DNA of 64,000 nucleotides from an uncultured Methylomirabilota bacterium (lineage in GTDB: Bacteria > Methylomirabilota > Methylomirabilia > Methylomirabilales > 2-02-FULL-66-22): positions 416,001 to 480,000 of the forward strand of contig CAWJSJ010000002.1 in the NCBI GenBank assembly GCA_963845565.1. Direction: 5' to 3'. This document shows, piece by piece, positions 15,417 through 22,183 of the stretch. The position numbers were made by a program, and so were the translations under genes. The notes under the pieces are model-generated. The model worked only from the letters and a program-made list of their open reading frames with translations, was not told where the DNA came from and did no database searches. Position 1 is the stretch's first letter. Every line of letters begins with the position of its first letter.

Positions 15417-15471
15417 GCAGGAACCCGTTGAATGCAGAAAGGGGCAGCGCACGGCAAGCCTCCCCAACGGA

Positions 15472-15630
15472 AACGCCACCGGGCTCCCCGCCATCTCCGT
15501 CCCGACGGTTTCACGAGAACGGGGTGCCCACGGGATTCAGTTCATGGGGAGGCCGTACGACGAGAACGGCATCATCGCGGCGGCCAGCGCGTACAGACCC
15601 TGACCGACTGGCACGCCGGCATCCCCCGGG
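15472..15630 (+). pseudogene. Decayed C-terminal fragment of an amidase-signature (GatA-like) gene
   Basis: Across several frameshifts it reads NATGLPAISVP-GF-PTGIQFMGRPYDENGIIAAASAY-TLTDWH, the typical amidase C-terminus; no N-terminal part is present. Confidence 0.6.
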
Positions 15631-15650
15631 AACGTTGGAATATCGAGGAG

Positions 15651-15724
15651 CGTGTCGTCGCTTCTGCCCTGGCTCCTGCTGCGCTTTCCCTTTGTGCCTT
15701 CGTTCGCCCCGCCTCGATTCGCAG
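15651..15724. repeat. Dispersed ~75-85 bp repeat, copy 2 of 3
   Basis: CTGCCCTGGCTCCTGC...CCCTTTGTGCCTTCGTTCGCCCCGCCTCGATTCGCA. Confidence 0.85.
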
Positions 15725-15825
15725 GGGAGAGACCAACTTGGCTTTCGCGCCAATTCATCAATGGTTTCGGGTGCTCTAGGCGAGACTCGCACCATTCGTC
15801 CGACTGTTGGCCCTGTGGGGGCAAC

Positions 15826-16890
15826 CTAATTATGAGCGATTTGTTTGAGGAAAACGGGTAACACTCTCTTGTTCTGAGTGATGGTGATCACGCCGTTGCT
15901 TTGCAACCACGTTTCCACCGCCAGACGCCGGGCGGTTTCGGCTTGACGCTGGGTGTGCACCGCCCGGGCCTGAATGAGCGTCCGGGTCAGTTCGTTGATT
16001 GCATCGAAGATCTCCCTTCGCGTGCGACGAGTATACGCCTGCCGCGCTGACCTCGCATCCTGAAACACCCTGCAGGCAACGTGCCCCTCGAGGCAGCGGC
16101 GGGGGCGATGGTTCAGGGCGTGTGCCAACCCCTCCGCCCAGACCTGCACCTGGGACTCCGGGACGGGGCCATGGGCGAGGATCTGCTCCACCAGCGGCGT
16201 TTTCAGTTCCCGGACCGCGCATTCCATCCCGCCGTTGTAGGGCGGGTACTGGGGGGGCGAGTTCAGCGGCAGGACCAGGTAACGGGCCAGGACCTCATCG
16301 ACCGCTCGCTGATTGAGATTGGACCCGTTGTCGCGCTTGAGCACCAGCGGCGGTCCATGCTGCAAGAACAGCTGTTCCAGGCGCACGGCCACGGTTTCTC
16401 CCAAGACCCGCTCGCCTACCCAGGGGGTGAACTTATAGCGCGAGGCGAGATCCTGCACTTGGTGCAGATGCAAGGTGTGGTGGGCGAACCTCGCCAACTC
16501 CGCGTCGTCCAGCGACCAGACCAGGCCGGGAACGTGCCAAGTGATGTGGCGTAATGCGGCCTGGCGCTGCTGGGCCAGCTCCCGCCGCACCGTCTCGGTC
16601 AGCGCCTGCAGCTCGCGCCGGGAGATCTGCGTGTGGTACTGCCGGTACACGGCCCCGACGCCCCGGCTGCGCTGGCGGCCATGGTGCAGGCCGTACAAGT
16701 CCCCGTGCAGCTCCTCCAGGGTCAGGGGCGCCACCTTCTTGGGACCCGGCCGGAAGACGGCCGGCTGGCCACGCTCCAGGCGGTGCTTCCACCGCCGGAA
16801 GCTCCCATACGGCACCCCCAGGAATCGGCAGAGGCGTCGGTACGGCCAGCGCACCTGGCGCTTCAGTTGGGTCAGGGTCGTCACCACCAT
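15826..16890 (-). CDS. Second DDE integrase/transposase (IS3 OrfB-like, ~354 aa)
   Basis: WSLDD, VQDLASRY, LKRDNGS and YNGGME (DDE triad), LNHRPR; ATG with GAGGTGG upstream; the stop lies just beyond the left IR. Confidence 0.8.
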   Translation of the reverse strand: MVVTTLTQLKRQVRWPYRRLCRFLGVPYGSFRRWKHRLERGQPAVFRPGPKKVAPLTLEELHGDLYGLHHGRQRSRGVGAVYRQYHTQISRRELQALTETVRRELAQQRQAALRHITWHVPGLVWSLDDAELARFAHHTLHLHQVQDLASRYKFTPWVGERVLGETVAVRLEQLFLQHGPPLVLKRDNGSNLNQRAVDEVLARYLVLPLNSPPQYPPYNGGMECAVRELKTPLVEQILAHGPVPESQVQVWAEGLAHALNHRPRRCLEGHVACRVFQDARSARQAYTRRTRREIFDAINELTRTLIQARAVHTQRQAETARRLAVETWLQSNGVITITQNKRVLPVFLKQIAHN

Positions 16891-16900
16891 GGCGGCCACC

Positions 16901-17237
16901 TCAGGCGTTTTTTTTATCCGGCTGCGCCAACCGCTGCCGGATCCGCTCCGTCTGCTCGCAGGACGTCGAGCTTCGCCTGCAACTCCTGGGTCTGGCGCTG
17001 GAGCGCTGCCTTCTCCGGGTCGAGGGGCCGCGGCGGGCGCCCGTGGTCCCGATTGCCCAGTGCCTTCACCATCGCCGCCAAGGCCCGTCGCTCCCACTTG
17101 TAATACGTCTTGCGGGAGATCCCCAGTTGCCGGGCGGCTTCCTGGGCACTCACCACCCCGCTCCGCACCTGCATGATCAGCTGCGCCCGCTGCCGGGCCA
17201 AGGCTTGCTGGTGAGGGCTGGGTTGCGGATCGCTCAT
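16901..17237 (-). CDS. HTH + coiled-coil protein (IS OrfA-like), probable 1-nt insertion near 16958
   Basis: SAQEAARQLGISRKTYYKWERRAL HTH; AGGAGG RBS; removing one base gives LDVLEQTERIRQRLAQPDKKNA-stop. Confidence 0.7.
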
Positions 17238-17267
17238 CGCGGAATCCTCCTGCCCCGCGGGGATGGT

Positions 17268-17609
17268 CTACTTGGCCGGCGGCGGGGCTTTCGGTTCCTG
17301 CAGCTTGGCCAGCCGTTTCTCCAGTCTGGCCATGCGGCCCTTCTGCTGCACCGCCTGGCGCGCCAGCAGCCGCTCCAGTTTCGGGCTCAGCGCGGCTCCC
17401 GGTTCGAGGCGCGTCTGCGACTCCAGCGCCTTGAGCATCGCCGCTAGCGCCCGCTCCTCCCAGTGGGAGAGCACCTTCGGGCTGATCGCCAGCTCCTGGC
17501 AGACTTCCGCCGGGCGCCGCCGCTCGGTCCAGATCGACAGCACCGCCTGCACTCGCTGCTGGGCATTGTACGGCAGCGGCTCCTTCTTGGCTTTGATTTC
17601 CGTGCTCAT
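17268..17609 (-). CDS. HTH protein (IS OrfA-like, 113 aa)
   Basis: YNAQQRVQAVLSIW...PAEVCQELAISPKVLSHWEERAL; strong GGAAGGAGGAG RBS. Confidence 0.72.
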   Translation of the reverse strand: MSTEIKAKKEPLPYNAQQRVQAVLSIWTERRRPAEVCQELAISPKVLSHWEERALAAMLKALESQTRLEPGAALSPKLERLLARQAVQQKGRMARLEKRLAKLQEPKAPPPAK

Positions 17610-17619
17610 GGGCTCCTCC

Positions 17620-18801
17620 TTCCAGGTCGTAGGTGACCTCCTGCTGCGGCCGCGGCTCCGCGCCATCGACGAGCATCTTCACTTGGCCCTTCTCGGCCCG
17701 GATCACCACCGATTGCTCACCCATCCGTCCCACCATGTAGAACGGACTGCGCGGTTGCCCCCGCAGCGCCAGTTCCAGCACGTTGTCCTGAATGCCGCGC
17801 TCGATGACCTGCCGCAGCTCCTGGGCGATCGCGAAGAAGCGATCGGCCGGGCACAACCCCTCCAGGGACTGATGGGGCCGCCGGTGGTTGTAGTGCTTCA
17901 CCCAGAGCCGGATCCGCTCGCCGGCCGACTCGAAGCTGTCGAACTGCGCGCGCACCAGGAACTCCTCCCAGATGGTTTTCCAGAAGCGTTCGATCTTGCC
18001 CAGCGTCATGGGATGGTGCGGGCGGCTCTTGATGTGGTGCACCCGCTCCTTCCGCAACTCCGCCTCGAACCGGGTGGTCCCGCGCCAGCTCGAGTACTGG
18101 CGGCCCTGATCGGAGAGCATCTCTTTGGGCACGCCGTACTCCGCCACCGCCCGGCGGTACACCTCCAGCACGTGCTCCGCCGTCTGGCTGCGGAACACGT
18201 CCAGCCCCACCACGTAGCGGGAGTGATCGTCGAGAAAGCCGATGAGATAGGCGTTCTTGCCGCCCAGCCGGAAGGTGAAGATGTCGGTCTGCCACATCTG
18301 GTTGGGCGTGGCGCGCTCGAAGAAGCGCGGCTGAGGGGGGTTACGCTGGGGTTTGGGGCGAGGTGTCTTGAGGAGCTGGTGCTCGTGTAAGGTGCGGCGC
18401 ACCGTCTCCCGGCTCACCGGCAGAAACAGCACGCGCCGCAGGAACTGGCTGATTTTCTGGATCCCCACGTCGGGATGGCGCCGCTTGAGGTCGACGACTT
18501 TCGTCTTCACCGCCGGGGCCACTTTCGGCCGCTGACGGTTCGGACGTGTCGGCTTCGACTGCAAGCCCGCTTCCCCCTGGGCGCGGTACACCCTCACCCA
18601 CTTGCCCAACGTACTGTGGCCCACGCCCATTTCGCGGGCGACCTGCTCCACGGGGAAGCCTTCCTCCAGGCATAACTGCACCGCTTTGCGCCGGACCTCG
18701 AACGGGTGGGAGTGAGCGTGCGGACGCGTTGACCGCCGCCCCGCCCCCCGCGGGGGATGAGTCCTCTTCCTCTTCCCTTGACCCTCGCTGATCCGTTCCA
18801 T
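17620..18801 (-). CDS. IS481-like transposase (HTH-HTH-rve); the reading frame stays open to 15826
   Basis: VEQVAREMGVGHSTLGKW HTH; WQTDIF, LSDQGRQY and GKIERFW (DDE triad); YNHRRPHQSL; AAGGAG RBS. The 17620 coordinate marks the end of recognisable homology, not a stop. Confidence 0.9.
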
Positions 18802-18898
18802 CGGTAACACTCCTTTCGGTTCCTCCTGGGAACCCCGGCGTTGGAGTGTCACCCGTCTTCCTCAAGGACTTTTGCTCATGATCTGGTCGTTAGCCCAA

Positions 18899-18983
18899 GC
18901 TGTGTCGCCCCTCTGCCCTGGCTCCTGCGGCATGCTCCCCCTTTGTGCCTTCGTTCGCCCCGCCTCGATCCGCAACGGCGCTC
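18899..18983. repeat. Dispersed ~75-85 bp repeat, copy 3 of 3
   Basis: GTGTCGCCCCTCTGCCCTGGCTCCTGCGG...CCCTTTGTGCCTTCGTTCGCCCCGCCTCGATCCGCAACGGCGCTC. Confidence 0.85.
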
Positions 18984-20143: not shown

Positions 20144-21052
20144 ATGCCCCAGAAGATCGGCGTCGTCGGCATCGGCATCATGGGCCAGCGGATGTGCAGA
20201 AACCTCGTCAAGGCGGGCTTCCCGGTGGTGGCCCACGATCTGAGCCCGACGGCAAGTCAACTGGCCGCCGCGTTGGGTGCGGGCTTCGCGGCCGACCTCC
20301 CCTCCTTGGCCCGCCAGGCGGACGTCGTCCTCTTGAGCTTGCCCGGTCCCCCGCAGGTCCTCGCGGTGACCGAGGGTCCGCAGGGTCTGCTCGCGCACCT
20401 CCGGCCCGGCGCCCATCTCTGCGACGCCAGCACCGTGGACCCCGGCACCTCTCGCAGGGTCTACGAGGCGGCCCGCGCCAAAGGGATCCATGCCCTGGAC
20501 TGCCCGGTGAGCGGCGGCCCCACCGGCGCCGAGGCCGGAACGCTGACCATCATGGTCGGCGGCGACGCGGCGGCGCTGGAGGCGGTGCGGCCGGTCCTCG
20601 CGGCCATCGGGAAGAAGGTCGTCCACTGCGGCCCCCCGGGCGCCGGCCAGGGGGCCAAGCTGGTCAACCAGGCGCTGGTGGCGATTCACACGGTGTCGGC
20701 GTTCGAGGCGCTCCTGGTGGGCCGCAAGCTCGGCCTTGATCTGGACACGATGGTGTCGATCCTGCGCACCAGTTCCGGCGGCACATGGCTCCTGGAGAAT
20801 CATCTCCGGATCAAGGCCCTGGCCGGGGATTTCGAACCCGGCTTCGCGCTCAACCTGCTCTTCAAGGATCTGAACTTGTTCCTGCAGACGGCCACCGAGG
20901 CGCAGGCGCCCGCCCTGATCGCCGCCTCGACGCTTCAACTGTACAACGCCGCGCGCGCGGCCGGCGGCGGCTTGCGAGATCAGACGGTGGTAGCCAAAGA
21001 GATGGAGAAATTGGCCCAGGTCGAGCTCGGCACGTTGACGCCGGATCGGTAA
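20144..21052 (+). CDS. Beta-hydroxyacid dehydrogenase (3-hydroxyisobutyrate dehydrogenase / GlxR-like)
   Basis: IGVVGIGIMG, DCPVSGGPTGAEAGTLTIMVGG, GQGAKLVNQ, PGFALNLLFKDL; GAGGAG RBS. Confidence 0.92.
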   Translation: MPQKIGVVGIGIMGQRMCRNLVKAGFPVVAHDLSPTASQLAAALGAGFAADLPSLARQADVVLLSLPGPPQVLAVTEGPQGLLAHLRPGAHLCDASTVDPGTSRRVYEAARAKGIHALDCPVSGGPTGAEAGTLTIMVGGDAAALEAVRPVLAAIGKKVVHCGPPGAGQGAKLVNQALVAIHTVSAFEALLVGRKLGLDLDTMVSILRTSSGGTWLLENHLRIKALAGDFEPGFALNLLFKDLNLFLQTATEAQAPALIAASTLQLYNAARAAGGGLRDQTVVAKEMEKLAQVELGTLTPDR

Positions 21053-21154
21053 GCCGTTGTCAACGAATAACGTGACCGGAGAAATTCGGGAACGGCATAA
21101 GGAGCCGTAACGAAATCGCAAACAATGGACCCGTGATTTCGTAACGGCTCCTAA
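21050..21154 (-). mobile_element. TTA/TAA-flanked MITE/REPIN-like element (inverted copy)
   Basis: Reverse complement carries arms GGAGCCGTTACGAAAT / ATTTCGTTACGGCTCC and terminal TTGACAACGGC, as at 22044 and 45772. Confidence 0.85.
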
Positions 21155-21211
21155 GCACGCGGCGGGCGCGAGCACGCCCGGTACCCAGGGTTGCCCACAC
21201 GGAGCAAGCCA

Positions 21212-22043: not shown

Positions 22044-22147
22044 TTAGGAGCCGTTACGAAATAACCTATACATCTCTTTCTATTTCGTTACGGCTCCTTA
22101 TGCCGTTTCGGAATGTCTCCGCTCAACTAATTTTTTGACAACGGCTT
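22044..22147 (+). mobile_element. TTA-flanked MITE/REPIN-like element
   Basis: Nearly identical (2 internal mismatches) to 45772-45876. Confidence 0.85.
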
Positions 22148-22183
22148 GCGAGGATTGCGACCCGCCGACCAACGGGAGGAACC

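Follow-up and report, generated by a model that had tools for sequence, protein, structure and literature searches.

The 64,000-nt window analysed here (positions 416,001 to 480,000 of contig CAWJSJ010000002.1, assembly GCA_963845565.1, from an uncultured Methylomirabilota bacterium) contains an insertion sequence (IS) of 3084 bp at 15814..18897 that encodes two different DDE transposases, designated A and D, and two small helix-turn-helix (HTH) proteins, B and C. All four genes lie on the minus strand, as a first-pass annotation of the window had reported. Together with its homologues, the element represents a two-DDE IS family that is real, recently active and widespread, and whose insertion outcome is anomalous: target duplications are absent from finished insertions, and at every site where the target can be traced the element has taken the place of about 1 to several kb of DNA that is now missing. 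To our knowledge, simple bacterial ISs use one type of DDE active site for all steps, and nearly all of them leave a target duplication. No description of this layout was found in the literature outside subscription journals, ISfinder and TnPedia, and the family is apparently undescribed. On balance, the sequence evidence leads us to favour the reading that this is an autonomous IS of IS3/IS481 ancestry that would need two different DDE enzymes, with the labour split by step rather than by end.

Homologues of D numbered 1243 among 8000 scored candidates, and 253 representatives of 50%-identity clusters matched D at an E value of 1e-30 or better. From a scan of species genomes, the best 80 of 205 D loci were analysed, several of them being copies from one genome. 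The genes A, B and C are found in that order upstream of D in 66 of the 68 loci with at least 1 kb of upstream sequence, and both exceptions are disrupted, either by truncation of D or by another IS inserted upstream. The four-gene order, which the first-pass annotation had suggested following across taxa, is kept in at least eight phyla by tree label: Acidobacteriota, Methylomirabilota, Myxococcota, Verrucomicrobiota, Kiritimatiellota, Lentisphaerota, Nitrospirota, and Thermodesulfobacteriota. Five loci have three HTH genes, and a distant locus on a viral contig apparently has one; plasmid and phage collections yielded no matches to D. Among 401 genomes of the phylum to which genome G252 belongs, A is present in eight and D in eight, with seven in common. 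The A of the A-only genome lies at a contig edge, and the D of the D-only genome is 5'-truncated and frameshifted. HTH genes and a D-like gene are located downstream of all six distant A homologues scoring at least 335 bits, and of none of the eight scoring 196 bits or less. The A-D linkage holds down to about 30% identity in D.

The D-D-E triad is intact in 63 of 66 A matches and 78 of 80 D matches, the remainder being mostly truncated or frameshifted copies. Among database homologues of D it is complete in 259 of 270, partial in 10, and E-D-E in one, so the second enzyme is not degenerate in its homologues. Median ratios of nonsynonymous to synonymous substitution rates (dN/dS), calculated from 17-18 hand-chosen pairs, are 0.11 for A, 0.19 for B, 0.17 for C, and 0.26 for D; the selection test that had been proposed for both DDE genes thus points to purifying selection on each. 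As judged from these sequences, both triads are kept by selection and both enzymes look active. Pairwise identity in A rises with that in D (Spearman 0.71), and major clades recur in the A and D trees, the latter from a quick search only. In several genomes, whole units that are 99.9-100% identical occupy sites unrelated to one another, and the copy number reaches about 10 per genome. Given the linkage, the conserved triads, the selection, the agreeing trees, and the near-identical copies at many sites, chance nesting of one IS within another is rejected. The earlier suggestion of one element with two DDE enzymes is therefore upheld, and A-B-C-D is a single mobile unit bounded by TG...CA ends.

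The ends of the window copy were placed at 15814 and 18897, where identity to copies in four same-genus genomes drops sharply. The limits first assigned (15833..18878) are each 19 bp too short. The length of 3084 bp comprises 3083 bp plus one private extra base. Comparison of copies delimits imperfect inverted repeats of about 53-54 bp with TG...CA termini, which include the 20/22 inverted block already recognised in the first pass. The left inverted repeat (18844..18897, minus strand) begins with TG and has the conserved tip TGnnCTAACRACC, an ATGA box and a GGGTRACACT box. The right inverted repeat (15814..15866, plus strand), which overlaps the 3' end of D, begins with TGT and has a variable tip and the same ATGA and GGGTRACACT boxes. 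Across copies the right ends were classed as TGT and the left ends are TGG, TGT, TGC or TGA, and the tips are asymmetric, the left being conserved and the right variable. Only two end-like boxes are present, one per end, in agreement with the initial observation that there is no internal pair of inverted repeats. The element is a single copy in its own genome, and a search of 21 genus genomes and of the contigs of other runs did not reveal its empty site. A repeat of 70-90 bp has three copies, all inside the window (15652-15723, 18898-18983, and 2628-2715; 85-88% identical). The possibility that the 73-bp repeat flanking the element (15652-15723 and 18902-18974) is a target duplication was considered and rejected, as the two copies are 88% identical and offset by 90 bp, and a third copy exists.

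At 56 distinct sites, the left and right flanks overlap by 0, 1, 2, and 3 nt in 44, 8, 3, and 1 cases, respectively, equal to a shuffled control (41.8, 9.4, 3.6, and 0.9). No overlap reaches 4 nt, and a target duplication is present at none of the 56 sites. Comparison of whole left and right flanks at 36 sites, which reached as far as about 4 and 6 kb (nine loci were limited to about 1 kb), revealed only short diverged repeats rather than long duplications. Duplications split between copies by recombination were also considered and rejected: overlaps of at least 4 nt occur in one of 301 within-genome left-right pairs, compared with six of 1339 pairs between genomes. Genomes with a single copy lack target duplications as well. 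Nor are the missing duplications the product of assembly scrambling, because other ISs in the same assemblies retain theirs. Copies of IS21 have 5-7 bp duplications at three of five sites (the other two show one longer duplication and one deletion), and another IS keeps its CTAG duplication. Inspection of 71 left and 85 right flanks revealed a bias common to both ends, in which A is avoided at position -1, and A at -4/-5 and G at -14 are favoured. The composition of left and right flanks does not differ significantly at any position from -1 to -10 (p 0.10-0.96).

Genes are cut by the element at 16 sites, and in none of these does the same Pfam family continue on the other flank. The Pfam scans covered stop-free junction frames of at least 70-75 aa (37 of the 50 frames listed in one set and 35 of 35 in another). 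Where filled sites could be compared with an intact reference, as had been suggested at the outset, target DNA proved to be missing at all four anchored sites, in amounts from 1.07 to more than 3 kb, the reference being either another copy or a relative. The junction sequences of locus L211 lie 1073 bp apart in a sister species (80-91% identity, left anchor 68 bp). In L078, the left end lies at base 395 of a 3160-bp three-recombinase (RIT) element, an identical intact copy of which is found elsewhere in the genome, and the right flank is a gene without its first ~465 bp. The loss at this locus is at least 3.2 kb, because the RIT element is interrupted on the left and the start of the right-flank gene is missing. 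The right end of L225 cuts an identical copy of another IS, the next 1.5 kb of which is absent. In L079, half of the same RIT element abuts the final 150 bp of another repeat. For L212 the net loss was estimated at about 7 kb, the exact ends not being fixed. Empty-site searches for L214, L215, and L080 did not find exact breakpoints. No precise insertion was seen.

Several further features were observed around these sites. At L211:6494-6997, a second, element-free breakpoint lies 68 bp beyond the left end and joins a peptidase fragment to a transporter-like fragment; it is possibly the scar of an earlier event. In genome G252, opposite halves of the same RIT element (L078:3400-3795 and L079:2225-3793) each abut a left end on one contig, 125 kb apart, and the middle 1196 bp is in neither locus. 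The two halves are possibly one copy split by rearrangement. Many flanks consist of defence or mobile genes (L085, L089, L122, L143, L157, and L225), including genes for methylase, serine recombinase, SNF2-like, GmrSD, and NYN proteins as well as other ISs, which is expected if only deletions of dispensable DNA survive.

The first gene starts with an ATG at 18801. Its core (17600..18801, minus strand) encodes an HTH-HTH-rve DDE enzyme with a predicted C-terminal beta domain and the triad D173, D231, and E271, which is invariant in 32 sequences. A matches the NCBIfam IS481 model NF033577 at 284.3 bits (cut-off 224), bearing out its initial description as an IS481-like HTH-HTH-rve protein. Its structure model is weak (predicted local distance difference test, pLDDT, 68) and the C-terminal beta strands are seen at low confidence; the best fold matches of this model are IstA (8b4h, E 1.8e-11) and TnsB. 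Profile comparison indicates that A and D are only 19% identical.

A has no stop codon where B starts, and its frame runs on over B and C. The resulting tail (16914..17599, minus strand), of about 228 codons, is overprinted on B and C and is rich in G, A, E, P, and D. The length of the overprinted tail ranges from 120 to 350 aa across copies, and in many of them, intact relatives included, A terminates at the TAA that opens the run of A residues at the C/D junction. No A-frame stops occur across B in any of 37 in-phase copies, compared with 80.7 expected from synonymous shuffles, whereas the third frame contains 146 stops against 139 expected. The copy L057, in which B is frameshifted, was set aside from this count, and the shuffle null overestimates stops in the phase of A about 1.8-fold (controls 15/28.7 and 26/43.2). 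With 12 clade representatives, zero stops were found against 24.7 expected, and the A-to-B phase is identical in all 12. An A-B fusion as the rule was rejected, as longer B homologues are rare (eight proteins). By analogy, we infer that the tail would be a co-translational tether for action in cis, holding the new enzyme on its own transcript, or it may couple translation to C/D. A cis effect is mentioned in PMC3711429.

B (17268..17609, minus strand; 113 aa) and C (16901..17237, minus strand) are OrfA-like HTH proteins and paralogues of one another. B is conserved, and its match to Pfam HTH_Tnp_1 falls below the cut-off. Both match HTH families and have in common the W-E-x-R-A-L-A-A-M motif that was recognised from the start. 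The window copy of C, by contrast with its initial description as one open frame, is broken by an extra base at 16957-16958 and stops at 16914. The same base fuses the A frame to D, giving an open reading frame (ORF) of 992 codons from the ATG of A. Since it is absent from the contigs of three of four other runs and from four close copies that were aligned (the window has CTGCGAG where close relatives have CTG-CAG or CTG-GAG), the extra base may be a consensus error rather than a mutation.

The second DDE enzyme, D (15826..16890, minus strand; 354 aa), has the triad D128, D187, and E223, and the triad motifs initially given for the two enzymes (WQTD/LSDQG/KIER and WSLD/RDNG/GME) are both present. 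A confident structure model of D (pLDDT 93.7) predicts an integrase core with a helical C-terminal part, without the C-terminal beta strands modelled for A. D alone gives a weak rve match and reaches about 52-55 bits with the models for IS481 and IS3; its score on the IS3 model NF033516 is 54.8 bits, below the cut-off of 160.

Although C and D were first taken for separate genes, they form a frameshift pair joined at an A8 run (16908..16915, minus strand), a probable transcriptional slippage site. Of 76 loci, 62 have an A8-9 run where C meets D; the remaining 14 include in-frame fusions, broken copies, and the window copy, in which A8 is masked by the extra base. The frame of D relative to that of C is +1 in 31 loci, -1 in 42, and the same in three. 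Natural C-D fusions of 469 aa number at least six among the 120 homologues listed. A mixed shift direction on poly-A is described as a sign of transcriptional realignment in PMC3711429, and C and D are probably joined by transcriptional slippage at A8-9.

The element resembles the IS481 family in having a single-ORF HTH-HTH-rve enzyme that passes NF033577 and a TGT right end. Members of that family normally carry a single DDE transposase gene and have TGT...ACA termini, which a paper also gives for eukaryotic IS481EU. The present element differs in its second conserved DDE gene and two HTH genes inside the ends, its TGN left end, the overprinted A tail (120-350 aa), and the absence of a duplication, that of IS481 elements being 2-15 bp and mostly 6 (PMC10045372). 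With the IS3 family (IS911, IS2, and IS150) it shares TG...CA inverted repeats and a DDE gene coupled through programmed frameshifting to an OrfA-like HTH gene (here read from sequence and mixed in direction). The one end-to-end junction found, between two different elements, has a spacer of 1 bp and in this looks like the junction of a copy-out circle. This spacer resembles the short spacers of the IS2 and IS911 circle junctions. D, however, lies far below the IS3 model cut-off (55 vs 160 bits), the frame on A8-9 moves by either +1 or -1 and not by the fixed -1 of IS3, and the element has an extra DDE gene and an extra HTH gene. IS3 elements duplicate 3-5 bp of target (PMC10045372), compared with none at the 56 sites studied here. 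In the Escherichia coli long-term experiment, as reported in PMC11708052, 54 of 68 IS150 events kept their duplication, as opposed to 0 of 56 element sites, and the other 14 were traced to later adjacent deletions. The element behaves like one of the IS3/IS481 type, but because it has more than a single DDE gene, leaves no target duplication, and encodes a D that scores below the model cut-off, we assign it to neither IS3 nor IS481.

Two more distant systems offer partial parallels. Tn7 has two catalytic proteins per element, TnsA and TnsB, the latter being among the best fold matches of A. TnsA, however, is a restriction-enzyme-like nuclease rather than a DDE enzyme, and Tn7 depends on an ATPase together with targeting proteins and duplicates 5 bp of target. 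The present element has no ATPase gene. As for IS21 (IstA/IstB), A is structurally closest to IstA and the ends contain more than one internal box, but the element has a second DDE enzyme as partner in place of the IstB ATPase and leaves no target duplication.

Copy-out/paste-in transposition involves two necessary steps, one asymmetric, in which end is joined to end, and one symmetric, in which the element integrates (PMC7780238). This is a natural split for two enzymes. We propose that one enzyme would join the conserved left tip to the relaxed right tip, copying out a circle. This enzyme would most likely be the slippage-made C-D fusion, kept at a low level like OrfAB of IS3. The other enzyme, most likely A, would join both ends to target DNA; A is the candidate integrase because of its IstA/TnsB-like C-terminal beta domain and its stronger constraint. 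B and free C would serve as end-binding regulators. The asymmetric tips fit the circle step, as does a right end-G-left end junction found on one metagenome contig between two 75%-identical elements. The target bias common to both ends fits one enzyme joining both ends to the target. No junction promoter was detected, the single promoter-like site, in L204, lying outside the junction. A division between excision and targeting, as raised in the first-pass annotation, would be plausible.

The loss of target DNA would result from the element's own activity by either of two routes. The two ends may be transferred in one event at separate sites, a kilobase or more apart, or nearly every insertion may be followed by an adjacent deletion. 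The absence of duplications at all 56 sites, among very young copies, makes an ordinary two-step rate hard to sustain. We tentatively raise, as a possibility short of probable, 'insertion by replacement', in which two obligate DDE enzymes would join the ends at least a kilobase apart in one event, and every jump would delete host DNA and leave no duplication.

Several points weigh against the two-enzyme division of labour and against a deletion coupled to insertion. The sets of D homologues were chosen by similarity to D, which favours intact triads, and the 80 loci include many copies that share a genome with others. The lower conservation of D (median identity 41%, vs 60% for A) also fits an accessory role. 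The single end-to-end junction joins different elements, and no free circle was found. The assignment of integration to A and of circle formation to C-D is by domain analogy. Deletions coupled to insertion and adjacent deletions that came later look alike at finished sites, and L211 is the sole deletion with both breakpoints fixed, in a cross-species comparison with a left anchor of 68 bp.

One alternative is that A alone is the transposase, with C-D acting as a processing nuclease or regulator that removes the target duplication in a role like that of TnsA in Tn7. C-D would then trim target or donor flanks, or resolve a branched intermediate. A is indeed a complete IS481-type enzyme and is more constrained than D, which lacks the C-terminal beta strands of A, and a single target bias is seen at both ends. 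Nevertheless, D has HTHs of its own, gains another by slippage as in IS3 OrfAB, and has a full integrase core, features that suggest end recognition and strand transfer over plain trimming. We therefore consider this alternative unlikely, while taking it seriously.

It is rather more doubtful that each enzyme serves one end, with A joining one end and C-D the other at separate target sites and the DNA between being lost. This is a form of the earlier proposal of different subunits for the two ends. If the ends were uncoupled, both the missing duplications and the deletions would follow directly, and the tips are asymmetric. However, the composition of left and right flanks from -1 to -10 is alike, and two enzymes only 19% alike would need the same target preference. 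The common preference of both ends thus disfavours this proposal.

It is very improbable, and largely refuted, that an IS3-like element inserted long ago into an IS481-like one and the pair was then frozen in place, with one enzyme dispensable and duplications lost by recombination between copies or by assembly errors. Each half resembles a known transposase layout, and one cross-copy 6-nt overlap occurs among the 301 left-right pairs. However, there are no internal ends, the linkage persists to about 30% D identity, purifying selection acts on all four genes, and the frame of A is interlaced with those of B and C. Duplications are missing from single-copy genomes too, overlaps between copies are about as frequent as expected by chance, and IS21 and another IS keep their duplications in the same assemblies. 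Insertion into pre-existing DNA breaks, proposed for some IS5/IS481 events in PMC11708052, would account for the lack of duplication and the target loss at every traceable site, but it is scarcely credible given that the element tips are precise and both junctions are biased (no A at -1, A at -4/-5), as for sites chosen by an enzyme.

Returning to the two-enzyme element favoured here, target loss without duplication points to an unusual way of moving. If host DNA is removed at essentially every site, environmental bacteria with the element would carry a built-in mutagen that reduces their genomes. The element would also offer a clean system for asking whether IS-linked deletions arise with insertion or after it, a question raised in PMC11708052. 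Such an element would probably be annotated by automatic tools as two unrelated transposases, and end finders that depend on duplications would miss it.

Other observations concern derivatives of the element and its surroundings. Internally deleted derivatives that retain both ends and resemble miniature inverted-repeat transposable elements (MITEs) are found at L226, L229, and L230 (G017) and at L232 (G253). Their sizes are about 140, 540, 1120, and 380 bp, and the two scored for flanks have no target duplication. A 2278-bp IS21-family element is inserted around B and C in at least five copies (L220, L221, L222, L028, and L030; G020), and at one of these insertions the duplication measures about 50 bp, not the 5-7 bp seen otherwise. 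Window positions 15420-15650 are the frameshifted 3' remnant of an amidase-like gene, in which contigs of other runs have extra bases. Further along the window, a 107-bp repeat is present at 21049-21160 and 22044-22150. It resembles repetitive extragenic palindromic (REP) sequences or MITEs, has about 180 near-full-length copies in the genome, and is abundant also in some relatives within the genus.

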